This document shows positions 1-20,000 of a stretch of 64,000 nucleotides of DNA, piece by piece. The stretch is from a virus. Lineage: Duplodnaviria > Caudoviricetes. Under the pieces are notes generated by a model. It saw only the letters and a program-made list of their open reading frames with translations. It was not told the origin of the DNA and ran no database searches. A program made the position numbers and the translations under genes. The DNA lies in IMG/VR virus record IMGVR_UViG_3300013902_000013, positions 1 through 64,000 of that record, one strand, 5' to 3'. Each line of letters opens with the position of its first letter. The first letter of the stretch is position 1.

Positions 1-514
1 TCCAACTTCCAGTTCCACCAGAACCGATAACAGAAGAACCAGGACTGGTATTAACACCTGTATTAGTATATAAAATAGGAGCGGCTCCTCCTCCTCCCTG
101 GGCTTGATATAAAATAATTTTATTTGAAGAGATGGAACTTTCACCTCCAACCTCGCCTGAATTACCATAGGCATATCCAAATGATCCTCCTCCAGTACCT
201 CCTTTACCACCATCTCCTCCTTTACCAACTATTAAATTTAATAGAGTATTTTTGGGAAAATATTCATAAGCGGCAAACATTAAACCAGCACCTCCACCAT
301 TTCCTCCTCCGCTAACCTTGCCAGAGCGGGTATTGATATAAGGCCAACCGCCAGATCCACCTCCACCCCCTCCAGACATGAGAATGTAATACCAACCTGT
401 TTTTGAAATAGTATAAGAATAAGAGCCTGCTGTTGTAAAACTTTGAAAATTTTGCTCAGAGATTTCTATATTACTATTATTGTTTTGTCCTAACAAAATT
501 CCATTTATAGCCAT
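1..514 (-). CDS. Glycine-rich tail-fibre-like protein with GILLG N-terminus (partial, runs off window edge; not in the supplied ORF track)
   Basis: Hand translation from ATG at 514 (RBS AGAAAGGA upstream) is open to position 2: MAINGILLGQNNNSNIEISEQNFQSFTTAGSYSYTISKTGWYYILMSGGGGGGSGG...LIVGKGGDGGKGGTGGG. This is the pattern of phage Gly-rich tail domains. Confidence 0.8.
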   Translation of the reverse strand, partial: MAINGILLGQNNNSNIEISEQNFQSFTTAGSYSYTISKTGWYYILMSGGGGGGSGGWPYINTRSGKVSGGGNGGGAGLMFAAYEYFPKNTLLNLIVGKGGDGGKGGTGGGSFGYAYGNSGEVGGESSISSNKIILYQAQGGGGAAPILYTNTGVNTSPGSSVIGSGGTGSW

Positions 515-638
515 TAAAATCATCCTTTCTATCAGTCTCAGAAACCCACAATATTTGAATTGTTAATTATTACCATTTTAATTAAATAAAAAACATGTTA
601 TAATAAAATAAAAAGATTAAGAAAAGAAAGGCGCTACA

Positions 639-1259
639 ATGGAAACATATGGATATGCAAGAGTTAGTAGTCATGAACAGAAATTAGACAGACAGTTAAG
701 GGCACTAATTGACGCGGGAGTGGTTGAAGATCATATATTTAGTGACAAGGCCTCAGGCAAGGATTTTAACCGTCCATCTTATCAAAGGCTCATGAAGGTA
801 ATTAAAGAGGGCGATACCCTAATTATAAAATCTTTAGACAGGCTCTCGCGCCATTACGAGGAAGCGCTTCAAATGTGGTCAGAGCTAATCCAAAAGCGCC
901 ATATCCAGATAAAAGTAATTGATACACCTTTTCTTAACACTAATAATGAATTAGGTGAAATGGGAATATTTATTAACAATCTTATAGTAAATGTATTATT
1001 CTTTAGTGCTGAACAAGAGCGCAAATTCATCAAACAGCGCCAAGCAGAGGGTATTGCAATAGCGAAAGAAAAAGGAGTTGCGTTTGGGCGCCCAACTAGA
1101 AAGCTTCCAGAAAATTTTCCAATGATTTACAATCTGTGGAAAGAAGGTTATCCAATTACTGCGCTCTTGCAATTTGCTGATGGTTACTGTTATAGCACTT
1201 TGCGCAACATGTTAAGAGACCCAAAAAAATATGGTGCTGATATGGACAAATTATTATAA
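639..1259 (+). CDS. Small serine recombinase (resolvase/invertase family)
   Basis: N-terminal YGYARVSS...QKLDRQL catalytic motif, SGKDFNRP, LDRLSR, EQERKFIKQRQAEGIAIAKEKGVAFGRP and a short HTH-like C-terminus; 206 aa. Confidence 0.92.
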   Translation: METYGYARVSSHEQKLDRQLRALIDAGVVEDHIFSDKASGKDFNRPSYQRLMKVIKEGDTLIIKSLDRLSRHYEEALQMWSELIQKRHIQIKVIDTPFLNTNNELGEMGIFINNLIVNVLFFSAEQERKFIKQRQAEGIAIAKEKGVAFGRPTRKLPENFPMIYNLWKEGYPITALLQFADGYCYSTLRNMLRDPKKYGADMDKLL

Positions 1260-1307
1260 TCTTATTAGTGGAATTTTTATTTCTTATATAAAGGAGGAAT
1301 AAATTCC

Positions 1308-1691
1308 ATGGAACAATATATATATCAGATTATAGAAGCGCTGGGTGCAATTCTCAGTATCGTACTTATTCGTCTTTTGCATAACTTTGCTACAAAGGCT
1401 AGGCAAGAGGCAAAGAATGAGAAAGCTAATTTCTATATAGACCTGTTAGAAAAAGCTATCTCAGACGCGGTTTCCGCTACGAACCAGACCTATGTAGATG
1501 CACTCAAGGAACAGGGTAAATTTGACGAGAGCGCGCAGAAATTTGCTTTTAATAAAACTAAGAAGGCAGTTATGGATGTTTTAGGTGAAAATGGTCAGAA
1601 AATACTGGAAGCCGCAATTAAAGATTTAGACGCTTATATAGATGCTAAAATTGAAGCTGCGGTTAAAGAAGAGAAAATACTCACAAAATAA
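1308..1691 (+). CDS. Putative holin (LL-H-like)
   Basis: One N-terminal hydrophobic helix followed by AVSATNQTYVDALK...KF and IEAAVKE, typical of LL-H-type holins; AGGAGG RBS. Confidence 0.65.
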   Translation: MEQYIYQIIEALGAILSIVLIRLLHNFATKARQEAKNEKANFYIDLLEKAISDAVSATNQTYVDALKEQGKFDESAQKFAFNKTKKAVMDVLGENGQKILEAAIKDLDAYIDAKIEAAVKEEKILTK

Positions 1692-1730
1692 GAAAAAGGG
1701 TAGTAACATAAGTTACTACCCTTTATTTTT
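1692..1730. terminator. Bidirectional intrinsic terminator
   Basis: 13-bp inverted repeat AAAGGGTAGTAAC / GTTACTACCCTTT with A- and T-rich flanks between convergent genes. Confidence 0.85.
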
Positions 1731-2037
1731 ATGTGATTCGTGAGAAAATTTTATTGGCTTGTGTAATAATTTCAAATCCATATGTAGCTATTAAGTCAGC
1801 AATAAACTCTTCTAGTTCCGCGCTCATGACGACATTATAACTGAACATCGCGGCATGGGTAATCTCATGAGCTAGAACCTTCCATGTTAAAGATTCGTCT
1901 AAGTTATCTACGATATAAATGCCCTTGGTTTGCCAGTCACACGCGCCTATGGTCCAAGTTCCGTCAGACTGGCGCATTTCTGGGTGATTGGGAGATACAA
2001 GATATATCTCCCATTTAATGTTATTAATCTTTATCAA
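1729..2037 (-). CDS. HExxH metallopeptidase-like protein (ImmA/IrrE-like fold)
   Basis: VLAHEITHAAM motif followed by EEFIAD; last gene of the 4613->1729 operon. Confidence 0.65.
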   Translation of the reverse strand: MIKINNIKWEIYLVSPNHPEMRQSDGTWTIGACDWQTKGIYIVDNLDESLTWKVLAHEITHAAMFSYNVVMSAELEEFIADLIATYGFEIITQANKIFSRIT

Positions 2038-2615
2038 ATTCTATTCACAAGACCTGCCATCTTATTCCTTAATAAATCTTTTTCCTCTTGTGATAAATCA
2101 TTTATTATTTCTATCATATCTTGAGTTAAATCATTCATGTATTTATCTAATTCTTTCATTTTAGTTTCTTTATCTAAATGACCTTCGCGCGCTTCCATAT
2201 AGCCTTTTCTTGAAAGCCCACTTCTTCCCTCGCGCGAGTCCCGCTTCATGGTCGGCACTTTAGTTTCACGGTATGGACCTATAGCATCATCATACTCGGA
2301 ATAGCGTTCGGGCTTCATTCTGATTCCCGCGCGGTCACCATGATAATACATTCTATAAGGCTCGTCTTGTTCATATCTATCTCTGTCATACATTGGATTA
2401 GGATAATATGGGATTTCTCTAAAGTAACGCTTTCTACCATATTCATCTTTTTCTTCCATTGCTTCTACTATTGTATGATAATAACAAGCTTCTTCAAGGT
2501 CTTTAATCATGTCTACGACTTCACCCATCTCATGCGCATCTACATTGCCCAGGTCTCCGATCTGACCCTGAACCGCCGCGATTAAAGTCTTTTTTATTGT
2601 TTTTAAATCTTCCAT
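2034..2615 (-). CDS. Hypothetical protein, charged and helical (unknown module gene 5)
   Basis: 193-aa ORF, translationally coupled to its neighbours. Confidence 0.8.
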   Translation of the reverse strand: MEDLKTIKKTLIAAVQGQIGDLGNVDAHEMGEVVDMIKDLEEACYYHTIVEAMEEKDEYGRKRYFREIPYYPNPMYDRDRYEQDEPYRMYYHGDRAGIRMKPERYSEYDDAIGPYRETKVPTMKRDSREGRSGLSRKGYMEAREGHLDKETKMKELDKYMNDLTQDMIEIINDLSQEEKDLLRNKMAGLVNRI

Positions 2616-2616
2616 A

Positions 2617-3036
2617 TTACGCCACCCTTTCTACAATTAAATTTGCATTTTGAATGTCTACGTTTACTCCACTAAGATTTTTGATACTTATAGAATAATT
2701 ATCTCCACGAGGAACATTTAAAAACATGCTTGAAAATACATTAAAATAATCACCAACTGCAGTAGGCGTTACTATCATTGAAGTTGAAGTATTAGCTTCT
2801 CCATCTATTGCAAGAGCTAAAGTAATTGGTCCAACTGTAGAACCTGTTGTAAGCGCTACATTTCCTCCAAATGAAATTCTAAAGCGGGAGCGACACTGCT
2901 GTGTCACTCCTCTAAGATTAACTAACCCAGAGCCTTGCCTATGGATTATGCTACATGACCCCGGAACCGCAGTTGCTGTAAATAAAACGTTTCCGTTTGA
3001 AGCTACTGTTTGAACAGCATTAGCAGTTATTTCCAT
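2617..3036 (-). CDS. Hypothetical beta-sandwich protein, possibly BclA-CTD/C1q-like (module gene 4)
   Basis: 139 aa of alternating beta-strand pattern (FRISFGGNV, ITLALAIDG, SISIKN, NANLIVERV). The fold call is inference. Confidence 0.6.
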   Translation of the reverse strand: MEITANAVQTVASNGNVLFTATAVPGSCSIIHRQGSGLVNLRGVTQQCRSRFRISFGGNVALTTGSTVGPITLALAIDGEANTSTSMIVTPTAVGDYFNVFSSMFLNVPRGDNYSISIKNLSGVNVDIQNANLIVERVA

Positions 3037-3050
3037 ATACTACTCCTTTC

Positions 3051-3917
3051 TTATGCGAGTGCGCCAGTATTATAGTTGCAACCGCATCCACCATAGTTAT
3101 AATTATAAGAACCAGTATAAGGATTTGGTACTACATATGCTGGCATTGCAGGTTTCGCGCCAAGTTGCTGTACAAGGTAAGCGTTCTGAGCTTGCTGTGA
3201 AGCCGCAAACTTAAGTGACTGATTTTCTGCTGTGAGCGCAGCAAGCCTGTCCTGAGTTAAGAAGTCAAGGATTGAACGAGTGTTTGCGTTCTGATTATCA
3301 ATTATGTCTCTTGCACTATCTGTTACCGCCTGTCTGGTCTGACACTCTTGGGTCGCGAGATTGTAGTTAAGGTCTGAGAACCCGGTCGTGATAGCTTGAC
3401 GGGTGTCACAACAACAGCTAGCCTGTTGAGCCGCCATGCTATTCAGCTGTGCGGTAATCGCGTTTGTATTCTGCATATTTGCAACAGTGTTAGAGTTGAT
3501 AGACTGTAAAATATCATAATCACCATTGGTAATAGTATTCTGAATAGTATTAAAACCTTGACAAAGTGAACTCTGTAAAGCGGCAGTATTATTTGCTCTT
3601 GCTAATGCGGCACTAGCAAAACCTTCTGATGTACCAGTAAATCCTGCGTCTATTGCGCGAGATAGATTATTAAAGTTTCCTTCTTCGCAGAGGTCAGCTC
3701 TTGTAAGCGCGCCCTGGAACGCCGGAGAATTTGCTGTACCTCCGCCGAAGCCACCTCTACCAAAGCCATCCCCGTAACCGAAGCCGCCCCAACAGAACAT
3801 TAGGATAAGGATCAACCACCAGCCATCGCCTCCCCAGCCTGAGTCTCTGTTACCATAACCGCCCGTAGCCGCAGCGATATCTGCTAAACTATAACCATTA
3901 GTATTACCGTTAAACAT
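3051..3917 (-). CDS. Gly/Cys/Asn-rich hypothetical protein with a hydrophobic segment (module gene 3)
   Basis: GGDGWWLILILMFCWGGFG hydrophobic stretch, SCCCD and GCGC cysteine clusters, coiled-coil-like C-terminal half. Confidence 0.8.
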   Translation of the reverse strand: MFNGNTNGYSLADIAAATGGYGNRDSGWGGDGWWLILILMFCWGGFGYGDGFGRGGFGGGTANSPAFQGALTRADLCEEGNFNNLSRAIDAGFTGTSEGFASAALARANNTAALQSSLCQGFNTIQNTITNGDYDILQSINSNTVANMQNTNAITAQLNSMAAQQASCCCDTRQAITTGFSDLNYNLATQECQTRQAVTDSARDIIDNQNANTRSILDFLTQDRLAALTAENQSLKFAASQQAQNAYLVQQLGAKPAMPAYVVPNPYTGSYNYNYGGCGCNYNTGALA

Positions 3918-3926
3918 AAATTTCTC

Positions 3927-4178
3927 CTATCTACGGAGCATTTCTTTTAATTCTGAGCTTGTTTTATCAAAATCCATTCCTTTGGCTTGGTACATATTTC
4001 TTACAATTTGTTCCATGTCATTTGTTTTATGTGAATTTGCAAGAGCTAAGAAATTTTGAGCCATTGGATTTTGAGACGCGTTTTGCTGTAGCATGCTCAT
4101 TACAATTTGCTGTGGATTTGCCCCGTTTTTCAGTTGCATTATAACTTTTAGTCTGGGGTCCATCTGCATATTATTCAT
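3927..4178 (-). CDS. Gln/Met-rich hypothetical protein (module gene 2)
   Basis: 83-aa ORF with RBS; NPQQIVMSMLQQ...NPM pattern. Confidence 0.75.
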   Translation of the reverse strand: MNNMQMDPRLKVIMQLKNGANPQQIVMSMLQQNASQNPMAQNFLALANSHKTNDMEQIVRNMYQAKGMDFDKTSSELKEMLRR

Positions 4179-4190
4179 TCTTTTCCTCCT

Positions 4191-4613
4191 TTAAAAATTA
4201 ATATCTAAAGGCTTCGCGGCAGGTTGTTCAGGAGTAGGGGTTGACGCCTCTATAGGCGGATTTTGCTGATTTTGCTGCAAAAGCGCGGTTAGCTTAGATA
4301 TAACATTATTGAATTCTTCTCTTGTAATATAATCTCCTTCTGAGAATTCAAAGTTGTTAGGAATCTCTTTTAATACATACATCTTAAGTGGCGCAGTTCC
4401 GTCCATCTGAAATTGTTTGGTATAAATACGGTTATTTGCTAAATCTGGAAAATAATTTATCATACCATCAAAGTCTATGGCGATTGCTCGCGCCTCTTCT
4501 ATAGAGGATACCGGTCTACCCTTTAAACCTGTCGGAGGAGCATTATAGATTGGCGCTCTAGGTGGGATATTTATCCCTTGAGCGCCGGGGTAATAATTAT
4601 TGTTATTCAACAC
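4191..4613 (-). CDS. Hypothetical protein (module gene 1)
   Basis: 140-aa ORF with RBS AAGGAG; Pro/Asn-rich ends flank a globular core (GRPVSSIEEARA...YFPDL..NRIYTKQ). Confidence 0.8.
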   Translation of the reverse strand: MLNNNNYYPGAQGINIPPRAPIYNAPPTGLKGRPVSSIEEARAIAIDFDGMINYFPDLANNRIYTKQFQMDGTAPLKMYVLKEIPNNFEFSEGDYITREEFNNVISKLTALLQQNQQNPPIEASTPTPEQPAAKPLDINF

Positions 4614-4708
4614 AATTCTCCTTTCTTGGAATTTATATTATACTTTAAACCCCTTCATTTATTATAAAAAATATAAGAAGATAATTGTGAATGTTCGTAA
4701 CTGTAATT

Positions 4709-4766
4709 TCCGACAAGATTCTACAAATTTCGACAAATTACTGCGCTCAGCTTACTGGATTCGACA
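4709..4766 (-). promoter_or_regulatory. Cluster of Spo0A (0A) boxes upstream of the 4613->1729 operon
   Basis: Minus-strand TGTCGAA at 4729-4735 and 4760-4766 (both in TTTGTCGAA context), plus one-mismatch TGTAGAA at 4719-4725 and TGTCGGA at 4709-4715. Three boxes are exactly 10 bp apart. TATAAT lies at 4661-4666 with no consensus -35. Confidence 0.65.
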
Positions 4767-4788
4767 AAACAGTAAGCTCAAAAAAGCA

Positions 4789-4825
4789 AAAAAAAATAGA
4801 ACCGCATTTAAGCGATTCTATTTTA
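4789..4825 (-). terminator. Intrinsic terminator ending the tail-fibre operon
   Basis: Hairpin ATAGAACCGC-ATTTAA-GCGATTCTAT followed on the minus strand by a T9 run. Confidence 0.6.
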
Positions 4826-5303
4826 TAATTACCAATACTGAGATTGGATTTATCGGTTGGTGTCCTGCTATGAATTGAATTTTTCCATTTTCTACTTTGC
4901 AAGCCAAAATTAAACTATACTCACGTTCGTTCTGAGTGCATTGTATTACTACAGATTCTGGATTATCTGCGCCAGTAATTTCTTCCTCATATACCCAGCG
5001 CGACTCGACCTCGGACCATTTATCTTTTTCTAATGTGATTGGGAACATCTTCGCACCCATAGAGACCTGGATTAAAAGATCATTAAGCTGTTCGCGCAAC
5101 TCTGCAATATCATTAATAGTTGCAATTTCATCAGCTTCCACTATTTCATCCTTTTGCACTATCGCGTTTGCCGCGACCCCGACACGCTCGGTCTCAGACA
5201 CGTCGGCATACATCAAGGCGTTCTTTGCGCTGGCGCGCTGTAAATAAACGTATCCTTTGGTTTTTTCTTTTGGTAAGGTGTCAACTAATTTAAATAATGC
5301 CAT
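4818..5303 (-). CDS. Tail-fibre-associated hypothetical protein
   Basis: 161 aa; the C-terminal ~75 aa resembles the domain in 8966-9265, 9281-9832 and the end of 11983-14439. Confidence 0.65.
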   Translation of the reverse strand: MALFKLVDTLPKEKTKGYVYLQRASAKNALMYADVSETERVGVAANAIVQKDEIVEADEIATINDIAELREQLNDLLIQVSMGAKMFPITLEKDKWSEVESRWVYEEEITGADNPESVVIQCTQNEREYSLILACKVENGKIQFIAGHQPINPISVLVIIK

Positions 5304-5341
5304 AATATTTTTCTCCTTTTATTTATATTATAACATAATTT

Positions 5342-7459
5342 TTAACTAATTTGGACGGGAATAGTATAATAATATAATTTTTCCCCATCTTGAAATAAAG
5401 TAAAGGATTTGTCTCTTGGAGTAAAATTACCTATAGAATTACGATTTCTTATTAATGGGCCTTTGTGAAATTTTGTCCATGAATTAGTGTCCTTGGAGTA
5501 GTAAAGTCCTCCAAAAGTTATACCAATCCAAAAACTACCAGTATAAAATACATAAAAAAGATCTAATATATTTTCAGAAGAAGAAGTATCAATATTATAA
5601 AAAGAATCGTTATCAAGAGAAAAATTTTTTCCATCATAACTTATATAAAAATTGGCTTGTTCATCAATAATAATATAAAGACCATCTCCATAAAACATAT
5701 AATCAATAGAAGAATATAAAGTGGTGCTACTTGAATACCAATAGTTAAAATCATCGCTAAAATAAATTAAATTCAAATTATTGTCAACAGCATATAATCG
5801 ATGATTAACACAAAAAAATTGAGTATATAAATTATTAGTATCATATGAAAAGCTGTTTTGATCATTAATAGAGCAACGGTCAATAATACTAGTTAAATAA
5901 ATACCCTTTTTTGCGAGACCCACAACGAAGAATCCGTTATCTATAACTGTATAAGCCTTACTGTTAATATTTTGTATATCCTGACTGTTAAATTCGCAAA
6001 GTAATGTTAAATCTACATTTTGTGTTGAATATTTTGTAAATTTTTCATCAAAAGCAAAAACAGTATTAGTATATTCTTCTAATTTTACAGGAGCTATTTT
6101 ATCTTTATCAATATTTATTATACCGGGATGAGTTGATGAAGTCACTGTAGACCAAGTATCTCCTTTTTCTGAATAATACCAATAATAAGTAGAATTATAA
6201 TTTGTGCAAATAAAAAAAGTACTTTGAACATAAGAAAGGCTCATGTAATTCTTTTCATTTGAATTAACAAATGCTGGCTGAGAAGCTTTTTTCCACGTAA
6301 TCCCATCCGAAGTATAATATATTTCATTGTTGTAAAGACCTATCGCAGAAGATTGTCCAACCGTAATAGAACTAAGTTTTACAGCAAATTGAGATTCTTT
6401 CCAATTTTTAAGATTTGTTGTAAAAAAAATTTTTTTTGTATTATAAATAAAAGTCCAATATTGCTCATTTATTTTTATTAAACTACCACAGCCAGGTAAA
6501 GAAATTGTTTGCCAATTTTTTCCGTTGTCATTAGAATAAATCATATTGACATTAGCAATAGCGGAGTTTGATGCCCATATACTCCAAAAATTATTATTAT
6601 TAAAAATTTGTATTCCATAGTGACCACTATGGACAATACTAACATTAGGCAAAGTGGCAATTAGATCATTATTAAGATTAAGTATATTACCTCCAGAGTC
6701 AAGAATAAAAAAATTGTTTTCCCCGCCAAGAAAATCTATAACATTGCCAACACTTGTCTTCTCCCAATTTTCACCATCGCTACTTTTATAAAGATAACTA
6801 TCAAAATTGGCATACCAAAAATTATTAAAGTATTCTACTTTAGTATAATAGTTACAAATCTTATTTCCATTTTGAGCCTGTATCCAATTTTTTCCGTTAG
6901 AAGATACGTATAAGGGTTGTGATTTATCTGAGTTTCCATCTGTTGCAAAAAATTTTCCTCCTTTAGACCAAACTCGAAAAGAGTTATTCGATTCTGTCAA
7001 GCCGGAAAGACTTTTTTGGAAAGTATCATCTTCTAAATAATAAATTTCTCTAAGTCCACCTGCAATAACTATGTCTCCATCTGTAGCTAACGAATAATAA
7101 GAATCTGTTGAGTTAATTTTTGAAAAGTCTGGAGCGGTAAGATTATTATTTATACACTTAAAAATATTATTTTGAGCTAAAAGATAAACTGTACTATTGT
7201 TTGTTATACATCCATCAGTAGGCGTTGTTACTAAAACTGAAAACCAATTTATTTTATCTGAAGAATAATATAACTTTTCACCCCCTAACATAAAATAAAG
7301 TCCAGAGACTTTATTATAAAGTATTTGTTTCATGGGAGACATGAATGTTGAAAATTGAATAGTATTTATTCCTTCTTCCCAAATACAAGGCTTTAAAATA
7401 TTTTCAATAGAAACAAGATATTCTACTTTTTGATTAGATTTTTGTCCTGAAGCTATCAT
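5342..7459 (-). CDS. Beta-propeller/BNR-repeat protein, candidate receptor-binding protein
   Basis: 705 aa with repeated Asp-box-like motifs (YYSSDKINW, YVSSNGKNW, YKSSDGENW, YSNDNGKNW, YTSDGITW, YISYDGKNF); very AT-rich. Confidence 0.7.
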   Translation of the reverse strand: MIASGQKSNQKVEYLVSIENILKPCIWEEGINTIQFSTFMSPMKQILYNKVSGLYFMLGGEKLYYSSDKINWFSVLVTTPTDGCITNNSTVYLLAQNNIFKCINNNLTAPDFSKINSTDSYYSLATDGDIVIAGGLREIYYLEDDTFQKSLSGLTESNNSFRVWSKGGKFFATDGNSDKSQPLYVSSNGKNWIQAQNGNKICNYYTKVEYFNNFWYANFDSYLYKSSDGENWEKTSVGNVIDFLGGENNFFILDSGGNILNLNNDLIATLPNVSIVHSGHYGIQIFNNNNFWSIWASNSAIANVNMIYSNDNGKNWQTISLPGCGSLIKINEQYWTFIYNTKKIFFTTNLKNWKESQFAVKLSSITVGQSSAIGLYNNEIYYTSDGITWKKASQPAFVNSNEKNYMSLSYVQSTFFICTNYNSTYYWYYSEKGDTWSTVTSSTHPGIINIDKDKIAPVKLEEYTNTVFAFDEKFTKYSTQNVDLTLLCEFNSQDIQNINSKAYTVIDNGFFVVGLAKKGIYLTSIIDRCSINDQNSFSYDTNNLYTQFFCVNHRLYAVDNNLNLIYFSDDFNYWYSSSTTLYSSIDYMFYGDGLYIIIDEQANFYISYDGKNFSLDNDSFYNIDTSSSENILDLFYVFYTGSFWIGITFGGLYYSKDTNSWTKFHKGPLIRNRNSIGNFTPRDKSFTLFQDGEKLYYYTIPVQIS

Positions 7460-8496
7460 AAACTTACCTCCTTTGTTTCTGAAGTATAAATTCCTGAATA
7501 AGTTGCCGCCATTAGAATACCATTTTGATAATTTACATCAAACACTTCTGAATCAATACCTTCGGTTTTTTCCCAACTCAAAGAATTTTCATTAAAATAA
7601 TAAATACCTTTTGTAGTTCCAGCATAATATCTATTATTTTCACAAAATAACTTTTTCCCTCCGGTATTTAACATCGTAGTCCTTTTAAGGGTAGATATAG
7701 AAAAATTTATTATAGCAGAATCCGTTATTATAAAAATATTATCGGTATCTTTTATAATAGCCGAATTCATTGTTTGAAATTCTACTATTGTTGTCGGTGA
7801 CCATTTATAATTATTTGCTATTTTTTGAGAATCCATTCCATCTAATTTACCTATTGCCACTATTCCAGGCATTATAAATATAAAGCCAATTTTGTCGATA
7901 TAAAAACAGTCTAGTGAATATGAAGTCTTACTAAAGCTAGCTACTAAAGTCCAATTATTACCAAATATGGTCCCATCAAGACTATTAAGTCCAAGGTCAA
8001 AATAGCCATCAATAAACCATCTTCCGTAAACTTTTTTTATAAAATGACTCGAAACAACACTCGTTAAGGTAGTTTTTTTCCAGCCTGTTAAACCGTCTAC
8101 AGTAATAGTATAATAATTTCCATTTTCATTAGAAGTCACCCATAATCCATTTTCTCCACAAGCTATCGCAGAACAGTTTGTTCCTTGAATAAGTGAATCT
8201 GTAATATCTACCCAAGTGATCCCATCTGTTGTTTGTTTTAATCCTGTTTGCGTTGCCGCTATTGCAATACGTTCTTTCATAATAGCAATACTTGTAGCTT
8301 GTGCATTGTCATTTCCGGTCTCAAAAGACCAAGTTTTTCCATTATTTTTAGAAAAATAAAGTCCCCCATCAGAATTTATCCCAATCCAAAGGTTTTGAAA
8401 AGGATAAATTTTTTCTAAACGCATTTTACTTACTTGAGTCCATTTTTTACCATTAAAATTTTTAGTTTCATCTTGTATTGCGCCCGATAATATCAT
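7456..8496 (-). CDS. Beta-propeller/BNR-repeat protein
   Basis: 346 aa; YFSKNNGKTW, QTTDGITW and GIYY/GIYT repeats. Confidence 0.65.
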   Translation of the reverse strand: MILSGAIQDETKNFNGKKWTQVSKMRLEKIYPFQNLWIGINSDGGLYFSKNNGKTWSFETGNDNAQATSIAIMKERIAIAATQTGLKQTTDGITWVDITDSLIQGTNCSAIACGENGLWVTSNENGNYYTITVDGLTGWKKTTLTSVVSSHFIKKVYGRWFIDGYFDLGLNSLDGTIFGNNWTLVASFSKTSYSLDCFYIDKIGFIFIMPGIVAIGKLDGMDSQKIANNYKWSPTTIVEFQTMNSAIIKDTDNIFIITDSAIINFSISTLKRTTMLNTGGKKLFCENNRYYAGTTKGIYYFNENSLSWEKTEGIDSEVFDVNYQNGILMAATYSGIYTSETKEVSL

Positions 8497-8954
8497 TACT
8501 TACCCCCCTCTTGTATTTCGTCCACTTTAAATTGAAAAGTATCATTATTTGAACTTTGTGAGCCATCTTTAATATATTTTATATCTATAAAATGGTCACC
8601 TTTTTCAACACTCGTATAAGTACATGATTGTTCAGAACTTTGTGATTTTCCTTTAAAGTTCATTTCATAAGTGCTATCAGCACTATTGCTTAAACTTAAA
8701 GCAGTATCTACTTTTCCCATAATACCGTAATCATAATTAGACTCTGCGTAATTTATACACTTAAAGAAAACAATACTATTTGCAACCAAATGTAATTTAA
8801 CCCTGCAAATAGCATAAGAACTATTAATACCCTTGTTTTTACTTTCATAATAGCCATTACTATTCAGCTCAAATCCATAAGTAGCATTTGCAATAGGTTC
8901 AACGGTATAAGAGCTTACATCTGGAACATAAGGTTTAGATAAATTATAAATCAT
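8496..8954 (-). CDS. Tail-associated hypothetical protein (beta-sandwich/carbohydrate-binding-like)
   Basis: 152 aa; YYESKNKG..SSYA, ESNYDY and HFIDIKYIKDGSQSSNND patterns; located within the tail-fibre block. Confidence 0.55.
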   Translation of the reverse strand: MIYNLSKPYVPDVSSYTVEPIANATYGFELNSNGYYESKNKGINSSYAICRVKLHLVANSIVFFKCINYAESNYDYGIMGKVDTALSLSNSADSTYEMNFKGKSQSSEQSCTYTSVEKGDHFIDIKYIKDGSQSSNNDTFQFKVDEIQEGGK

Positions 8955-8965
8955 TTATAACCTCC

Positions 8966-9265
8966 TTATGAAAATTTTACATCCATTAAGAGAATATATA
9001 CTGAAAGCGCGCTTGTAGGAACTTCGGCGCAAGAGAAAGTAAGCGAATTCGCAGCTTGTGTAATACACTGTACATCACAATCATTATACATTGTTCTACT
9101 CGCCGCAGCAGGTGTAGGTAATATAAATTGACTATCTTCATCTGCCAAAACACCTGTAAGTGTTACTGTTTGCTGATTATCTGTCCAGCCCGCTGTAGTA
9201 AGTGTTATCTTGTGCGCGACTACAGTAGAACCACCCGCAACTGGAAGTGATGAATTAAATAACAT
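8966..9265 (-). CDS. Small tail-fibre accessory protein
   Basis: 99 aa consisting almost entirely of the repeated ITL..GW...QTV.V.G...LTF...VPT..L.VYIL domain. Confidence 0.65.
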   Translation of the reverse strand: MLFNSSLPVAGGSTVVAHKITLTTAGWTDNQQTVTLTGVLADEDSQFILPTPAAASRTMYNDCDVQCITQAANSLTFSCAEVPTSALSVYILLMDVKFS

Positions 9266-9280
9266 ATTTTATCCTCCTTT

Positions 9281-9832
9281 TTACATTACTACTCTCTTAA
9301 TTAAAACGTATACAGTTAAATTAGCTGTAGGTACTTTTGATGCTGTAAATGTAATTTGATTTTTTGCCTGCGCTGAAGCGTAAACTCCTGCTTCCATATA
9401 CGCGCTCATACTTGCTATTTCTGGCGTTATATGTATTTCCTGTTCTGTTTCTATTGCACTTGTGCCTGATACTGTGACTACCTGCGTATAAACATCTCCA
9501 CTTGCTGTCCATCCTGTTGACGAAAGGATAATACTTGTTTGACTTGGTATTAAATCAAAACTATAAGTTTGAACAAACATGGCATCTGCTTCTAAAGAAC
9601 TAATGTAGATTTTTTCATCGCTGATACATGAAAAAATTGCACGTGTATTTTTTTGATAATAACTAAGATTAAAATAAAGTGATCCATTATAAAAAACAAT
9701 TTCTTTTTTTCCTATTGCTCCATCTATTGATGTTAAAGCTGAATTTATTACTTTCGTACTTGTAAGTTTTGTTCCATCAATAACTAACGACGTACTACCA
9801 CCCGCGCCAAGTAAAATTCCATTTACTGCCAT
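9281..9832 (-). CDS. GILLG-cassette protein carrying the repeated C-terminal tail domain
   Basis: Start re-called to ATG 9832 (MAVNGILLGAGG; RBS GGAAAGGA upstream). The C-terminal half is homologous to 8966-9265. Confidence 0.75.
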   Translation of the reverse strand: MAVNGILLGAGGSTSLVIDGTKLTSTKVINSALTSIDGAIGKKEIVFYNGSLYFNLSYYQKNTRAIFSCISDEKIYISSLEADAMFVQTYSFDLIPSQTSIILSSTGWTASGDVYTQVVTVSGTSAIETEQEIHITPEIASMSAYMEAGVYASAQAKNQITFTASKVPTANLTVYVLIKRVVM

Positions 9833-9856
9833 TTTTATCAATCCTTTCCAATATTA

Positions 9857-9897
9857 AAAACCCACACTTTTTTGAAATGTAAAAAAGTGTAAGTTTT
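9857..9897. repeat. Imperfect 17-bp inverted repeat between the divergent cassette blocks
   Basis: AAAACCCACACTTTTTT-gaaatgt-AAAAAAGTGTAAGTTTT (15/17 complementary). Confidence 0.75.
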
Positions 9898-10071
9898 CAT
9901 TTGTAAACTATAAAAATTATAAAAAAATTGGTAAGAGATATAGTTATCCCTTACCGGCATAAGATATTCTATATCTCTATATATTATAAAAACGCGCTCA
10001 GCGGCTTGAGCCATTTTTGTCCAAAAAATTTTACTGATTTTATTATCTTGTAAATAGACAAGGAGGTCTTT

Positions 10072-10464
10072 ATGGCAGTTGATGGTATTTTACTTGGAAA
10101 AAGTAATAATAGTAATACTCCTTTTAAAAAAATAGAATATACAGGAGGAGCAGATTGGTCAACTTCTAATAAACTTACTTTTACTTTAGAATGTGAACCT
10201 ACTTATTTAATGATTTATTATAATTCATATAACTGCTTTTTACAGTATTTCAAGCTTGAAGACGGTTCAACAATGGGATATATAATGTATAATGGTAATG
10301 GACCAGTTTTAAATATTCAAAATGGATATATAGGTGGCAGTAATTATTATGAAATGTCTGTAACAATTTCTGGTAAAACAGTGACCTTAGTAGCGCCTTA
10401 TGTAAGTGGTCGTCCACCTTATTTTAATGGTGGTGGAGCAAAAGGTATTATTTTATATTATTAA
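10072..10464 (+). CDS. GILLG-cassette protein 2
   Basis: MAVDGILLGKS; AAGGAGG RBS; opposite strand to the surrounding operon. Confidence 0.8.
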   Translation: MAVDGILLGKSNNSNTPFKKIEYTGGADWSTSNKLTFTLECEPTYLMIYYNSYNCFLQYFKLEDGSTMGYIMYNGNGPVLNIQNGYIGGSNYYEMSVTISGKTVTLVAPYVSGRPPYFNGGGAKGIILYY

Positions 10465-10512
10465 AATTTTATTTAATATTTTTATTCTGTACTCACAAAA
10501 GGAGTGAATTAA

Positions 10513-10893
10513 ATGAGTACAGAAGGAATTTTATTAAATCAATTATCTTTATCTGAGAGTTTAAAGGTAAAAAGAATATATTTTAAAACCAGTTCTATGG
10601 ATAGAAACAAAGGATGGGGGATTGGTATTATAGCACCTACACAATTCCCTTTACCTTTTGAAATAAATCCTGAAAAAACTATTGTTCTTATTAATGGTGG
10701 TTTAGTATGTAGTGATAGTGGTTCAAGCTCTTATCCTGATACTGATATTGGAACAATATATGTCTCTGAAATTACTTCAAACACAATAGCGTTTAGTATG
10801 AGTCATGCTTTTTATATAGACTATGATAGCAAGACTCAAATATATGGATATAAAGCAGGCACTTTTAATTGGATTTTAATTGAATTTGAATAA
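10513..10893 (+). CDS. GILLG-cassette protein 3
   Basis: MSTEGILLNQ; AAGGAG RBS. Confidence 0.8.
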   Translation: MSTEGILLNQLSLSESLKVKRIYFKTSSMDRNKGWGIGIIAPTQFPLPFEINPEKTIVLINGGLVCSDSGSSSYPDTDIGTIYVSEITSNTIAFSMSHAFYIDYDSKTQIYGYKAGTFNWILIEFE

Positions 10894-10940
10894 TTTTTTA
10901 ATTAAATTAAAAACCTGTACTCAAAGAAAGGATACTTTAC

Positions 10941-11411
10941 ATGAGTACAGGAATATTACTTGGTCAAGGCGGCGGTAGCTCAATCCCCGCAGGCCTAATA
11001 TGTATGTGGTCTGGTTCTAGTTCTAATATACCTAACGGATGGGTACTATGCAATGGAAGTAACAACACTCCAGACTTAAGAGATAAATTTGTGCTGGGTG
11101 CAGGCAATAATTATGCTGTGGGCGCAACAGGTGGTGAAAAAGAAGTTACTCTTACTGTTGCGCAAATGCCTAGTCATAATCATGATATTGGGAATCATAG
11201 CCATAGTATAATTAATTATTATGATTACAGAAGTGGTTCTTCTGGTTTGGGTCTTGAGTATAACACTTGTGGTTCTGGCAGCTCAAAAATTTTACCAGGT
11301 TTATATACAAGCGGCATATCTGGTGATACCACCACTTCATCTATAGGTGAAGGAAAATCTCACAATAATATGCCACCTTATTATGCTCTTTGTTTTATAA
11401 TGAAATTGTAA
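10941..11411 (+). CDS. GILLG-cassette protein 4: tail-collar/fibre-tip-type domain
   Basis: MSTGILLGQGG followed by IPAGLICMWSG...GWVLCNG..NTPDLRDKFVLGAG...GGEKEVTLTVAQMPSHNH...HNNMPPYYALCFIMK, the classic phage tail-collar signature. Confidence 0.85.
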   Translation: MSTGILLGQGGGSSIPAGLICMWSGSSSNIPNGWVLCNGSNNTPDLRDKFVLGAGNNYAVGATGGEKEVTLTVAQMPSHNHDIGNHSHSIINYYDYRSGSSGLGLEYNTCGSGSSKILPGLYTSGISGDTTTSSIGEGKSHNNMPPYYALCFIMKL

Positions 11412-11464
11412 AATATTACAAGTCTTTTAAATGGTGTATATTTCTAACACAAGGAGATTACACC

Positions 11465-11944
11465 ATGGCAACAAATGGAATTTTACTAGGACAAATAACT
11501 AATAATATAATAAATGCCGATACTGTCGAAGCAATTCAAGGAAATTTTGAAAATGGCAGGTATAAAACCATATATGAAAATAATGAAGGAAAAAACGCAA
11601 CATTTACCTTTACTCCAAAAATTAGTGGTTATATAAATTTTGTAGTTATAGATGGAAGCAGAGAAAATTCTGAAATAACATCATCCGCTTCAGTGTATAG
11701 GGTCTGCCTTCAAGATAGAAATAAATTATATTTTTATTTTTTTAAAAAAAGAATAATAGTGGACACAGTAGGAAAAATTTTAGATGAACCGCCCAGTGAT
11801 AATGCACGCTTCCACAAAATTTTAATTACCGAACCCGTAAAAATTACCGCTAACCAAACATTAACGATACAAACAATATGCAATACTGGAAAATGGTATC
11901 AAGTAGGCATTTTATATGATATAGTGCCTAAAATAGATATTTAA
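11465..11944 (+). CDS. GILLG-cassette protein 5
   Basis: Start re-called from 11390 to ATG 11465 (MATNGILLGQ; AAGGAG RBS), same frame. Confidence 0.75.
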   Translation: MATNGILLGQITNNIINADTVEAIQGNFENGRYKTIYENNEGKNATFTFTPKISGYINFVVIDGSRENSEITSSASVYRVCLQDRNKLYFYFFKKRIIVDTVGKILDEPPSDNARFHKILITEPVKITANQTLTIQTICNTGKWYQVGILYDIVPKIDI

Positions 11945-11982
11945 AAAATCCCCTCTACTAATTACAGTAGAGGGGATTTTTT
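11943..11982. terminator. Bidirectional intrinsic terminator
   Basis: 17-bp inverted repeat AAAAAATCCCCTCTACT / AGTAGAGGGGATTTTTT between convergent genes. Confidence 0.9.
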
Positions 11983-14439
11983 TTATTGTGGATAAAAAGT
12001 AAATAAGTTAATCGCTTTACTATTTTCTTTACTCATAACAACAGTTATTGTATTCGTATCAAAACTAATACTTTCTATATTACTATAATCTTCATTGTCT
12101 TTATCTTTACAAACTACCATAGGTTGTTTATCGCTTGTAAAATTATTTGCAACAGAAAGAACAACTTGTACCTTATTATCTGAAGTAGTAGACCAAGTGC
12201 CTGTTCCAGAAGATTTAAGTGGAATGGTAAAATTTGTCTTTATAGTTGTCGCCGCGGCAACCTGTCGACCTAATTCATTACAATAATCTGTTAGAACATC
12301 TACTTGGTCATCAATCTCTGCTGCACTATATACACTTAAATTCTTGCGCGCCTGCTCTACGGTCGTGGCACCAGTTCCGCCATGCGCAATATCTATGGTA
12401 GAACTCTTAAAGTTATTTAAACTTGTTTGAATAGTATTTATTTGACTTTGCATATTTGAAAAAGCATCATCAAATACAGTGTCATCATCTATAGACACCT
12501 TTAAAGCTATATCTTGAGTTTCAAATGAAACATCTTCTGACATTTTTTTTAAGAGGGCTTCATCGAAATTCAAGATTCCACCTCTTGATACTTGATTAGA
12601 AGTTGTTATAACTCTTAGTTCAGTTAATTTTTTAACAGTGCTATCTATTGATTTAAGACTATTATTTAATGTTGTAAGCTGTGTTGTAAATTCACTATTT
12701 TTCTGATTTATATAATTAACAGTATAAGTTTTATCCATTGCGCCTGTACTATCATAAGTATTTTGCAATAGAGTAGCTAAAGAGCCTGCGCTTCCAGTAA
12801 CTTTGATAGAATCCCAAACACCAGCATCTGTCTTAAATACCCAATATCCATTTATTTCACCTTCACTATTGGTATAGTCTACACTAAACAAATTAGCTGA
12901 AGTAGCTGTATGTCCGTAAACTGCTTCTGCAATAGCACCAAATTGAGCTACATCTGCAGCGTTATTTGGATTAAGATTACCCTTGTATTTTCTTGTATCA
13001 ACTTTTGTATATCCAGAAACCGAAGCATCATAAGTAAAATCATAGTAATCTGCTATAGTGATTGGTGCGCCGGTATCACCCTTGTCACCCTTTTCTCCAG
13101 TATCACCTTTATCGCCCTTTTCACCTTGAACACCCTGTATTCCTTGGTCACCTTTTTCGCCTTGAACACCCTGTATTCCTTGGTCACCTTTCTCGCCTTG
13201 GATACCTTGTATACCTTGCTCTCCTTGAATACCTTGGTCACCTTTATCTCCTTTATCACCTTTTTCACCCCTAATATTGCATTGTTTGATCCAAGCACCG
13301 TTGGTCGCACGATAAATGTCCCAAGTATCGTTTCTAAGATAAAAGTCTCCATTCAAAGAGCCAGAACCTATGGTTGGTAGACTAGTACCTGCGCGCCACA
13401 CAGAAGGCTTTGCAAGAGCAAATGAAAGTTGATAAGTATTTGCATCTTTAATTGCGCCAGTCACTGCGGTTTTGCTTACATCATCTGGGGCGAGTGTAGA
13501 GAATGTGGTTGTAAATAAAGAGGTTTTAGGTAAATTCAATTTTAAGCGCCACTGGGTATCGTCCATGACTGAACTTGCGGTTGGTGTAGATGCTATCCAA
13601 GAACTTCCATCTTTAATGAAAGGGGAAAGAACCGTAGTATCAACCCCATCGAGCTGACGCGCGAGCGTAGCACAATACTTAAAAGTATAAGTTGTGCCAT
13701 TTACAGTGGTACAAAGATAAGTATTACCATTTTTACTATTTACGTAATAATCTCCAGAACCAAATTTTACACCATTTAATTCATCTGTAGTTATTGTTGT
13801 TGTTGTGTCACTTTTATTGGTAAGCTTAGTTCCATATAAATAAGTTAAACCTTTAGGTAGCTTAAAGTAAATGTTTGGATGCTCCGCATCAGAACTATCA
13901 ACACTTGCTTTTGGTTCTTGGTTAGTAAATATCCATTCACTATCCACAGTTATAATAGGGACATTACCAGTTAATGAAGCAACCAAATGATAACCAATGC
14001 CGAAATCATCATTTATCATATATTTATCCATACCATTTACTGGGTCTATACGTTCATCTTCAACTACAAGTTTATCATCACTAGTATAACATTTTTCCCA
14101 AATTGTAGTATTGAAAAGTTTTCCGTCTGCTACATCTTTATAAGTTCCATCCTTTTGTAAAGTAGGCACTTTATATTCTTTGTCAATTTGTCTATTGTAT
14201 TCCCAACGAGTTAAATCTTTAGTAAAAGTATAAGTTTGACCATAACATTCTTTAGTTTCTGCTTTTTGATAAATTGTTTTATCCGCAGGATTACCATAAT
14301 TTATAAAAACAAGTTCATTAATACCAATATTAGAATTCCAACGTGCTTGTAAATCTTCAAGCATTTCGGCTTTATTTTCAAAAATTTTAGCTATTCTAAA
14401 GCTTTTGCCTTGCTTACCACCATAAAAACTCATATCCAT
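11983..14439 (-). CDS. Tail fibre protein with collagen-like (G-X-Y) segment
   Basis: 818 aa; about 23 consecutive G-X-Y triplets, a coiled-coil and an IAHGGTGATT...ARKNL fibre motif. Confidence 0.8.
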   Translation of the reverse strand: MDMSFYGGKQGKSFRIAKIFENKAEMLEDLQARWNSNIGINELVFINYGNPADKTIYQKAETKECYGQTYTFTKDLTRWEYNRQIDKEYKVPTLQKDGTYKDVADGKLFNTTIWEKCYTSDDKLVVEDERIDPVNGMDKYMINDDFGIGYHLVASLTGNVPIITVDSEWIFTNQEPKASVDSSDAEHPNIYFKLPKGLTYLYGTKLTNKSDTTTTITTDELNGVKFGSGDYYVNSKNGNTYLCTTVNGTTYTFKYCATLARQLDGVDTTVLSPFIKDGSSWIASTPTASSVMDDTQWRLKLNLPKTSLFTTTFSTLAPDDVSKTAVTGAIKDANTYQLSFALAKPSVWRAGTSLPTIGSGSLNGDFYLRNDTWDIYRATNGAWIKQCNIRGEKGDKGDKGDQGIQGEQGIQGIQGEKGDQGIQGVQGEKGDQGIQGVQGEKGDKGDTGEKGDKGDTGAPITIADYYDFTYDASVSGYTKVDTRKYKGNLNPNNAADVAQFGAIAEAVYGHTATSANLFSVDYTNSEGEINGYWVFKTDAGVWDSIKVTGSAGSLATLLQNTYDSTGAMDKTYTVNYINQKNSEFTTQLTTLNNSLKSIDSTVKKLTELRVITTSNQVSRGGILNFDEALLKKMSEDVSFETQDIALKVSIDDDTVFDDAFSNMQSQINTIQTSLNNFKSSTIDIAHGGTGATTVEQARKNLSVYSAAEIDDQVDVLTDYCNELGRQVAAATTIKTNFTIPLKSSGTGTWSTTSDNKVQVVLSVANNFTSDKQPMVVCKDKDNEDYSNIESISFDTNTITVVMSKENSKAINLFTFYPQ
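13070..13272 (-). repeat. Collagen-coding repeat, including a near-exact 36-bp tandem duplication
   Basis: Units at 13124-13159 and 13160-13195 (CCTTGAACACCCTGTATTCCTTGGTCACCTTTYTCG) encode GEKGDQGIQGVQ twice. Confidence 0.85.
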
Positions 14440-17086: not shown

Positions 17087-20000
17087 TCACCCCGCATTCG
17101 CCGCCGCGCCCATTGTAAGAACACTAACCTTACATGTATAATTAATTAATGCATAATTCTTGGTATTGTCCGCAAATTTTAGGCTTGCTATATCTCCATC
17201 AGATAAATTATTTAGCACATATCTTTCTGTTGCACCTATTCTAATTGCGCGGTCAGTTTTGTCATATTTAGATTTAATATAAATAATAGTGCCTTCATCT
17301 GCTTCTATATCAAGCTTAGATATATGTTCAAAGGCATAATACCTTGTACCATCATTATAAGTATCATCAGTTTCATCATAATTAGAAAAACTTGTTTTAT
17401 AAGTATTTTCAGTTTGTTTACGACACATTTGTTTGATAGTCTCAAGAATATCGTCTGTTTGAATTACTATATAATTCATTTGATGTTGAGCGTCATAGGT
17501 ACTGTCTACTGCATTTGGGTCTGCTTCATTATAAACTCTATACTCAGTTTTTATTCTCTTGTCATTATAATTATTTAAAATCTTTTTATCTGTCTCAAAT
17601 GCACCACCCAGCTGACCCCATATAGTAAGCATATCTTTGCTAACAACAGTTCTGGATAAAGCTTCAGTTGTAATAACTCGTGCAGTATAATTAATTGTAA
17701 TAGGCGTATAATATTTCTGCTTTATTCCATCTTTATCAGTTGCTTCAAAAGGTAAAGTAAAAATCTGATGACCAGAAGTCATAGCAAAATTATCAAAATT
17801 ATATGTCCTATTAGGTTTTATTCTAATCTCATTACCGTCTATTGTAAGTTTAATTGAAGAATAATAAGTATTCTTAGAAATTGCTTCTTGGAGCGTTTCG
17901 AGTGTTGTTCTCTGTTTTTGTAGCTCCGCAATCTCGTTCTTTAACCTTAATACTTTATATTCTATAGTTTCTAATTCAAGTGAAGTTTTCTTTCGAGCTA
18001 TTTCAGTATCAATAATACTAATTTGAGCGTCAAAATTTTGATTAGGATAAACGTCTATAGAAATAGCTTTGAGATTTCTAAATTGATATTCATAATCAGA
18101 ATCTCCAATCCTTTGACGACAATTCTCTACAATAGCTTGCATAATATCATCAGTTTCTGTAAATAAACCGCTGACCTGTCCGCAAATAGTTTCAGTATCA
18201 CCAACTTGTTCTTGGAACTCGCCTATATCTATTAAATCGAATTCGTCTAAGTTCTCAAGGCTAGGTTCATCTACTTCAATCGCAGTCGCGCTAAATGAAT
18301 AAATTAATCTGCCTAATTCTTCTTTCGGCGTTAAAGAAACTTCTGTAAGAACTACTAATATATTTCCTTCAGTTGGAGACTTATATAATTTATATTCTCC
18401 ATCATTTAAAAAATCTATTAACAGCTCTCTATATTTGCGTTCAACAAAATAATAATCATCTGTTAAATCATTACTATTATCCAAGTTATTTACATCACAA
18501 ACATAAATTCCACCGAGCCACTCTTTAATATTTCCATCTTCATCTTCTATTCTATCAAAATCTTCAAAATTATCCGCGCGGCGCCAGTAATTATCTTTGC
18601 TATTTACACTAAAACAAATTTTATCTGCTCCAACCAAATAATCTCCAGATTTGAATCTAAAGCTGTCAGAATCTACATATTCTGCAACCTCTTGTTCTAC
18701 GGAAATAAGCCCTTCAACCTGAAACTCAGAATAATAAGCATAACCATTCTTAGTTACAACTGGATATTTTCCACCTATTGTATCTTGTTTATTTTGTAAA
18801 ACATTTTTCTTAAAAGATTGAATTGTATTATCATACATCAGTCTAATATGACCTTTAGTTCCAAGAATATAATTGTATTGAAAATCAACCCAGCGCGCAG
18901 GCGCACCTTTCTCCATAAGAGGTACAGACCTATATCCCGAACTATTTTCTTTAACTATTGCATATTTATATTTAATACCACTTTCTATTGTATAATCAGT
19001 TTTGTATAAAATATCTTTAGTACCAACAACTGTAAAATAACATAAATCTTCCCAAAAATTATAATCAGAATATTCGTCAGTTCTTATAATTACAAAATTA
19101 CCAGATATGCTATCTTTAAAATCAATGGCTAACACCATGCAGCCTTCTTCATTCGTTAAAGCATTAGTATGGTCATATACTTCAAGAGTTATCCCTGCTA
19201 ACTGATTTAAACGACTAGGGATTACTTCAAAATAACTGGGGTTGGAAGAACCTTCATATCCATTCTTTGTTATAACAGAATATAATAAAGTATATTGCTC
19301 GTTTTCTGATAAAGTCTGTTTAAATCTGTACTTATCACTACTTAACACAGCAGGTGTTTTACTTATAAGGTCTTCAATTTGATTTTCTTGTAACCAATTT
19401 TTATCTAAAGAAACATTATCTTGCGTAACATTATGTTGAAGCCATCCTGTATCTAAAAATAAATCTGCTTCGTCTGTAGATTGTCCTTTATAAACTCTAA
19501 ACCTATATTTATCTACAGGTTCGTTAGAAATACAACCATAACGACCAGAAAATAATGGTGTTATTGTATCTACTGCGTGCAACGTACTATCAAACTGTAC
19601 ATTACTACTTGAATCAGACAACTGTTCACTTGAAAGTGCTATTAATGGTTGACTTATACATTTTAAAACCATAATAGTAGACCACTCACCAAAAGTCTGG
19701 TAAGTGGTCGTATTATTAGTTATCTGTGTAGTTTTCCAATTATAAAAATCTTTTCGATTTTTTTCATCAAGCCAAGAAAGCTCAGAATCTGCGCCAAAAC
19801 GCATCTGAACCTTATAATAAGTATCTTGTTGCCATCTAGGCTCTGCTAAATCAGAATTAAGTATAGTAACTTCACCATCTGTAAAATTTACATCAGTGTT
19901 TTTCTTATAAATAATTCCGTCTGGGTATTTAGTAGTATCTACTATAGATGCACCATTAGATTGTTTAACAATCTTTATTTGAACGTGTCCTATGTCAGAT

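Follow-up and report, generated by a model that had tools for sequence, protein, structure and literature searches.

How do six small phage proteins with unrelated bodies come to share one short N-terminal peptide, and does the serine recombinase encoded beside them have a part in it? The question is raised by positions 1 to 64,000 of IMG/VR record IMGVR_UViG_3300013902_000013, from a tailed virus (Duplodnaviria; Caudoviricetes); this whole 64,000-nucleotide (nt) stretch is referred to here as the window. We propose that the six genes encode free-standing receptor-binding or adhesin proteins, each built from a 9-residue hydrophobic peg (M-A/S-x-x-G-I-L-L-G/N, below also called the tag), a flexible linker and a variable globular body. 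The peg would dock every tip onto the same tail site, and one scaffold could carry several tips at once, or alternative ones. The peg-coding DNA, joined at one class of gene start (S-type slots) by a leader of ~37 nt, would be the seam along which tip genes are exchanged, re-fused and re-oriented, and the adjacent serine recombinase may catalyse inversions in the manner of Gin on the Mu G segment. Taken whole, this explanation stands at an even balance, and its docking-tag part is likely.

Architecture of the tagged proteins

All six genes open with M(A/S)x(x)GILL(G/N), at 514 and 9832 on the minus strand and at 10072, 10513, 10941 and 11465 on the plus strand, and a Shine-Dalgarno sequence lies 7–11 nt upstream of each start. 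A first-pass annotation made from the letters had picked out these starts, and all of them were confirmed, each with its peptide, its ribosome-binding site (RBS) and a body unrelated to the others. Past residue ~10–20, no mutual BLASTP similarity was found among the six bodies. The string GILL[GN] occurs seven times in a six-frame translation of the whole contig; six of the seven occurrences are open reading frame (ORF) starts, all inside 11.5 kb. Likewise, all six tagged starts of the related 123-kb contig G001 lie within 10 kb and adjoin the fibre gene. A control search of 1.2 Mb of unrelated prophage tail regions returned two loose tag matches, neither convincing. The relatives compared were G001, L001, L002, the L024–L031 set and L041, with L002 and L041 read over limited stretches; across the window, G001, L001 and L024, at least 13 unrelated bodies bear the tag.

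Three of the bodies in the window are fibre-tip domains. The gene beside the recombinase, g514 (2–514, minus strand; MAINGILLGQ), occupies what is termed below the gamma slot and encodes a Gly-rich tip (Gly_rich_2, E 1.5e-4). It is truncated by the contig end; its relatives are 291 amino acids (aa) long, and the full-length copy at L024:5845-6720 matches Gly_rich_2 at E 5e-11. The two-domain tip encoded by g9832 (9281–9832, minus strand; MAVNGILLGA) lies in the alpha slot, as the first gene past an intergenic region. Its AlphaFold2 model has a mean predicted local distance difference test score (pLDDT) of 88.8, with residues 1–12 disordered (pLDDT below 50), and its C-terminal beta-sandwich of ~90 aa matches the C-termini of many viral tail-fibre, collar-fibre and receptor-binding protein (RBP) models (E down to 3e-8, root-mean-square deviation ~2 Å). 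A Foldseek search of this model against the PDB gave nothing significant. The next gene (8966–9265, minus strand) encodes an untagged 99-aa paralogue of the same C-terminal tip domain. The third recognisable tip is B3 (10941–11411, plus strand), a tail-collar receptor-binding tip whose tag is one residue shorter; it matches the tail-collar fibre family PHROG 1800 (E 1e-29), only over the C-terminal part of that family, positions 383–545 of 545. The Gly-rich, tail-collar and repeated tail-domain bodies named at first pass correspond to Gly_rich_2, to PHROG 1800 and to the paralogy between g9832 and 8966–9265.

The remaining plus-strand genes are B1 (10072–10464, 130 aa) and B2 (10513–10893, 126 aa), whose bodies have no recognised fold, and B4 (11465–11944, 159 aa). 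For B4, a language model gave the sole lead, to the C-terminal receptor-binding domain of lambda J, and a single-sequence AlphaFold2 model yielded no usable fold (pLDDT 39).

Thousands of small stand-alone tail-collar proteins are also present in metagenomes, with short N-terminal extensions that differ by lineage (MVTGLTKIWAG in 10 representatives), and lineage-specific N-terminal pegs may be widespread among collar proteins.

A selected and replaceable peptide

The codons of the tag were analysed at 19 sites from six genomes. Over these sites its residues are invariant or conservatively replaced, while the second Leu is written TTA, CTT, CTA or CTC and the last Gly uses all four of its codons. 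Constant residues behind changing codons indicate that selection acts on the tag as a peptide, at the protein level. Conservation of the peptide in homologs, which the first-pass annotation had set as a check on its proposal, was found together with this synonymous change: the tag is unchanged on homologues of g9832 whose bodies are only 41–56% identical, and ~20 homologues of B3 (54–79% identity) retain it with only conservative changes of the I-to-F/L type. The linker that follows is always Asn-rich or Gly/Ser-rich. A reading of the tag as a signal peptide or prepilin leader was rejected, as a charged n-region, a long hydrophobic helix and Glu+5 are all missing from it.

The tag can be replaced by another module and transferred to another body. 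In one alignment (A1), one body bears either the tag or an N-terminal module of ~35 aa starting MANEIDALINVKDASG, and in many sequences the tag and the module each directly precede the same fibre-shaft motifs; therefore, the tag occupies the position of an attachment module. Distant stand-alone collar proteins have other short, lineage-specific N-termini in its place. In L041, a deletion of ~700 bp re-fuses the tag in frame, via four glycines, to the tip domain of the next gene, the counterpart of the 99-aa gene. The product (L041:3440-3744, minus strand; 101 aa) is a natural minimal tag-linker-tip protein, and the deletion itself is a simple one between short repeats of Gly codons.

The first-pass annotation had suggested that the peptide is a common docking tag through which interchangeable tips load onto one tail-fibre scaffold. 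Selection on the peptide, its disordered N-terminal position, the linker, the replaceable module, the fibre-tip bodies and published precedent all favour this suggestion, and from them we infer physical docking as its likely role.

One further property of the tag concerns its DNA. The codons for G-I-L, GGA ATT TTA, are more uniform than genome usage predicts, with GGA at 14 of 19 sites (29% expected from usage) and ATT at 17 of 19 (54%). This uniformity may hint at a nucleic-acid constraint on a core of ~9 nt, with shared ancestry as a confounder.

Leader repeats as seams between strains

The tagged genes start in two kinds of slot. At S-type slots, ~75 nt are common, comprising a box (TGTGGGTTTTTAA), the RBS and the first ~9 codons; the leader box is found nowhere else in either this contig or G001. 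Four such slots are defined by the flank outside the box. The alpha slot adjoins the intergenic region by the fibre gene, and its leader (9833–9866, minus strand) carries the box TGTGGGTTTTTAA at 9854–9866. The beta slot lies upstream of a 161-aa gene. The gamma slot lies 88 nt upstream of the recombinase start codon and points away from it, both here and in L024–L031; its leader (515–550, minus strand) consists of the RBS and the box TGTGGGTTTCTGA at 538–550, and similarity to relatives stops exactly at the outer edge of that box. The delta slot is on the far side of the recombinase and points toward it. At the B-type slots (10072–11465), only the coding part of ~26 nt is shared.

Alignments between genomes break off at the tag in one direction and exactly at the outside edge of the leader box in the other, and the same bodies recur behind different leaders. 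The Gly-rich body, which is in the gamma slot with MAI- here, is in another slot with MSV- in L024, and among its database copies of more than 90% identity six begin MSV- and two MAV-. A second body, b1, is found in the beta slot (MATT-) in L024 and in the gamma slot (MAVN-) in L026; two of its copies that are 96% identical have different residues at positions 3 and 4, and their next difference is at residue 53. Orientation also varies. Between the window and L001, the leader and tag keep their orientation, and the recombinase gene next to them is turned around. A 4.9-kb segment of L025, which holds the recombinase, a 127-aa gene and the operon of the 161-aa and 102-aa genes, has perfect inverted leader ends at its two borders (30 nt, k-1). 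In G001, an inverted repeat of 84 bp (89% identical) flanks 8 kb that include the recombinase, and the beta and alpha repeats enclose tagged genes that converge on each other, an arrangement like that of the Mu G segment. The repeat copies flanking the recombinase are near-identical within a genome (L025, L026/L028) and differ between genomes.

These comparisons indicate that, on an evolutionary scale, the repeat holds as a recombination seam for tip genes. The first-pass annotation had treated a fixed cassette order and orientation across relatives as grounds for abandoning its proposal; slots, leaders and recombinase orientation all differ between strains. Its claim that the cassettes are interchangeable stands on this evolutionary scale, given the 13 or more bodies and the breakpoints at tag and leader.

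Two apparent signs of rearrangement were set aside. Contig breaks at the repeat in L024–L031 are explained by k-1 overlaps of exact repeats, and the fact that both the window contig and L026 begin 513 nt into the gamma gene is due to chance, since their sequences differ. Separately, L001 contains a short ORF of 28 codons (18414–18502, minus strand) that has both leader and tag in full, and 88 nt further on a 244-aa gene starts MEGILLNQ, a shortened tag; all 11 of 11 database copies of the 244-aa protein begin in this way. This locus looks like a decayed or nested slot.

The plus-strand genes differ in organisation. They had been taken at first pass for a block flipped out of the late operon, and this part of the proposal did not hold: B1–B4 form an ordinary divergent operon that runs from a 230-bp intergenic region (9842–10071) to a terminator at 11943–11982. 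In B2, B3 and B4, a box upstream of the RBS pairs with the start codon and the first 2–3 codons, leaving the RBS in the loop (10487–10525, 10914–10951 and 11431–11468; z −4.8, −4.9 and −3.0, respectively). The hairpins are conserved in G001 (78006–78043 and 79163–79200) and probably serve translational coupling within the B1-to-B4 operon; the conserved MST starts are explained by pairing of the hairpin with the first codons. The B block is absent from L001, L002 and L041 and present in G001, where the B1 and B2 bodies differ and their leaders are the same. At 79191–79469 of G001, a B3-type collar gene is cut to 33 codons, with its leader and hairpin intact.

The recombinase and alternative explanations

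The small serine recombinase (639–1259, plus strand; 206 aa) matches Pfam Resolvase (1e-29) and PHROG 125, "DNA invertase" (4e-47); NCBIfam offered no specific family for it. The first-pass annotation had suggested that it shuffles or flips the cassettes. In favour of this, the repeat adjoins or flanks the recombinase and is inverted in relatives, and the attribution of seam flipping to this enzyme is plausible from these arrangements, though short of probable. A more specific version, a shufflon acting at 5' ends, would have the recombinase cross over in the tag-coding core (around GGAATTTTA) or in the leader and flip whole tip genes between promoter-proximal slots, the same ~26–75 nt serving as both recombination site and peg code. 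We hold this version only tentatively and consider it unlikely.

Several results weigh against the proposed explanation. No dyad-symmetric crossover site of the 12-2-12 type was found in the tag or leader (best mean half-site complementarity 0.52, in any register over 15 sites), and a local A/T palindrome is present at alpha slots only. The half-site-like GGTTTTTAAGA in the leader box, considered as part of a hix/gix-like dyad, fails the symmetry test, as does a resemblance of the tag DNA to gix. The enzyme scores better against the resolvases Sin and gamma-delta (1e-27) than against Gin (1e-18). The window's only full S-type repeats, at 514 (gamma) and 9832 (alpha), are direct, and S-type repeats are inverted relative to B1–B4 only as imperfect coding matches of 26–64 nt. 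B2–B4 look like fixed genes, because their hairpins are tied to their own start codons. No leader swap was found among near-identical copies of g9832, B1–B4 and the G001 cassettes X, Y, B1' and B2' (nine clusters of 2–9 members each). L002 and L041 have one tagged gene each and no recombinase gene in the stretch read, and homologous recombination between the 75-nt repeats could produce all of the strain differences seen. For docking, Pfam and PHROG scans of the neighbouring 208-, 667-, 818-, 1013-, 1145-, 705- and 346-aa proteins found no branching domain like that of T4 gp10.

Many of these points suit the strongest rival, to which we give a substantial minority of our belief: the tag is a docking tag and nothing more, shared through common descent and through purifying selection, which acts on an anchor peptide along with the signals for its translation, with ordinary homologous recombination and deletion moving the bodies and the recombinase acting elsewhere (for example, in multimer resolution) or riding as a passenger. 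The tagged relatives without a recombinase, the missing dyad and resolvase affinity, the nine clusters without a leader swap, the simple deletion in L041, and the terminator and coupling hairpins that the B operon has of its own are all as it predicts. It accounts less well for a recombinase gene that is always beside or inside repeat-bounded segments, for flanking repeats that agree within genomes and differ between them, for identical bodies in opposite orientation and different slots across related strains, and for the unusual uniformity of the synonymous positions in GGA ATT TTA.

The converse reading, that the peptide is merely the translation of an invertase crossover site located in the first codons and has no docking role, is improbable. 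It would explain why conservation of the core GGAATTTTA exceeds the prediction from codon usage, why leader/body chimeras exist and why repeats flank the recombinase. Nevertheless, Leu8 and Gly9 stay the same residues although each is written with four different codons, the tag persists in L002 and L041, which have no recombinase gene in the stretch read, a flexible linker follows it, a different protein module can replace it, and the B-type tags are stable and tied to RNA hairpins. Finally, a packaging or targeting signal that loads small cargo proteins, such as anti-defence effectors, into the particle for injection is very improbable: T4 internal proteins do carry a capsid-targeting sequence of ~10 residues, and a hypervariable locus whose small, unrelated proteins all begin with one short peptide matches that pattern exactly, but the genes here are in the tail-fibre module rather than a head module, fibre-tip or receptor-binding domains can be recognised in three of the bodies, a fourth has the lambda J receptor-binding lead, and some homologues carry fibre-shaft motifs directly behind the tag.

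Genomic setting

The window starts at position 1 of a 75,813-nt contig, a fragment of a larger phage genome. The contig begins inside a Gly-rich gene (window 1–228) and has a TA repeat at its other end; it is collinear with G001, an IMG/VR contig, and ~60 kb present in G001 are missing from it. A G001-like contig of 137 kb is also on record. Contigs of 91 kb, 137 kb and 142 kb encode cassettes identical or near-identical to those described here. In IMG/VR, neither the fibre nor the recombinase, a baseplate-protein alignment or a degenerate tag pattern led to any relative other than G001. In JGI metagenomes, the recombinase query returned nothing and the tag-pattern query one small relative, L041. 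No prophage relative was found in scans of GTDB genomes, and no relative among GenBank phages. Three fecal contigs with recombinases 42–52% identical to that of the window carry no tag. The phage is probably an SPbeta-sized, siphovirus-like gut phage, with a host that is probably a member of the Firmicutes.

A long structural operon on the minus strand terminates with an 818-aa collagen-repeat tail fibre (11983–14439, minus strand), identified in Pfam and PHROG scans, which is the candidate scaffold for the tips. A bidirectional terminator with a 17-bp stem (11943–11982) is common to this fibre gene and the B operon. The divergent control region between g9832 and B1 (9842–10071) is ~88–90% conserved in G001, L001, L002 and L041. 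A second bidirectional terminator (1695–1724) closes the minus-strand units that run from 9832 to 1729. Upstream of the alpha leader lie a terminator-like hairpin (9930–9955, minus strand) and an A/T-rich hairpin (9880–9905) that overlaps the start of the box; together, they may form an attenuator before the g9832 operon. Extended −10 elements (TGTTATAAT) are located at about 5325–5333 (minus strand), upstream of the 161-aa gene, and at about 597–606 (plus strand), upstream of the recombinase gene. Because each has such an element upstream, the pair of 161-aa and 102-aa genes and the recombinase gene look like self-contained transcription units.

Comparison with known systems

Serine invertases switch tail fibres in several systems, including Mu (Gin, G segment), P1 (Cin, C segment), e14 (Pin) and p15B (Min, with six crossover sites). 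As in these systems, a small serine recombinase here adjoins repeat-bounded variable fibre genes, relatives have convergent tip genes between inverted repeats, and the sites are multiple and in both orientations. In those switches, the repeat lies at the junction of a constant N-terminus and a variable C-terminus, whereas here it is at the 5' end, in the leader and first ~9 codons, of complete genes with their own RBS. Only ~4–9 codons are common among the cassettes, and each is a whole gene with its own RBS and start. In further contrast, no 26-bp dyad-symmetric site was recognised, the enzyme is nearer the resolvases, and the differences seen are those between strains. As the recombinase is of the serine type, the tyrosine recombinase of R64 shufflons (Rci, acting on sfx repeats) is not matched. 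In vsa switching of Mycoplasma pulmonis, the silent cassettes on which a tyrosine recombinase acts are devoid of start signals. There, as would be the case here, alternative bodies are joined to a promoter-proximal slot by recombination within a conserved 5' region, except that all cassettes of the present locus have an RBS and a start codon of their own. Tail-fibre genes are listed in published surveys of programmed fibre-gene inversions, which describe no exchanges at 5' ends or N-termini (PMC9881135). If the recombinase does act on the tag and leader repeat, the locus would be a tail-fibre switch that swaps whole genes at their 5' ends. Were the 5'-end shufflon to be true, the phage would change its host range by trading entire plug-in tips instead of the C-termini of fibres.

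On the protein side, the gp38 adhesin of T2/S16-type phages caps the tip of the long tail fibre and bears Gly-rich receptor-binding motifs. The tips here resemble it as separate small adhesins with glycine-rich motifs whose N-terminus would fit onto the fibre of another gene. They differ from it in that gp38 uses a folded N-terminal domain of tens of residues, in place of a 9-residue peg, and each of those phages has one adhesin gene. The T4 capsid-targeted internal proteins, cargo encoded with the head genes, are a more distant comparison, as the tagged genes belong to the tail-fibre module and encode fibre-tip bodies.

The closest likeness is to branched RBP systems. In the secondary RBPs of K1-5/SP6 and of KP32/KP34-type phages, 7–11 hydrophobic N-terminal residues form a conserved docking peptide (Latka et al. 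2019, PMC6872550), with hepta- and undecapeptides in K1-5/K1E/SP6 and further groups represented by KP32, KP34 ("MALxxLV"), Menlow and PhiK64-1 (PMC6872550). A docking role for a conserved RBP peptide has been shown experimentally (PMC13352976). In the present locus, too, a short hydrophobic N-terminal peptide is carried by several otherwise unrelated proteins, six here and six in G001, where two or more RBP genes sharing such a peptide characterise the class; it is conserved within the phage group, different or replaced between groups, and attached to bodies that are horizontally exchanged. The setting is different, being a siphovirus-like gut phage, probably of Firmicutes, rather than a Gram-negative podo- or myovirus, and the tips are small (126–380 aa) and non-enzymatic rather than depolymerase tailspikes. 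Also different are the number of tagged genes, up to six per genome, the location of the tag DNA in a recombinase-associated repeat, and the result of the neighbour scans, in which no gp10-like partner appeared. If the peg is a docking element, the locus would constitute a very compact plug-in tail-tip system, in which nine residues and a linker carry binding domains of 126–380 aa, and the conserved-peptide design would extend beyond Gram-negative podo- and myoviruses as a general solution rather than a peculiarity of capsule phages. The best-supported conclusion of this analysis is that the locus would be a further member of the known docking-peptide class, unusually compact, with several tagged copies, and carried by a kind of phage new to that design.

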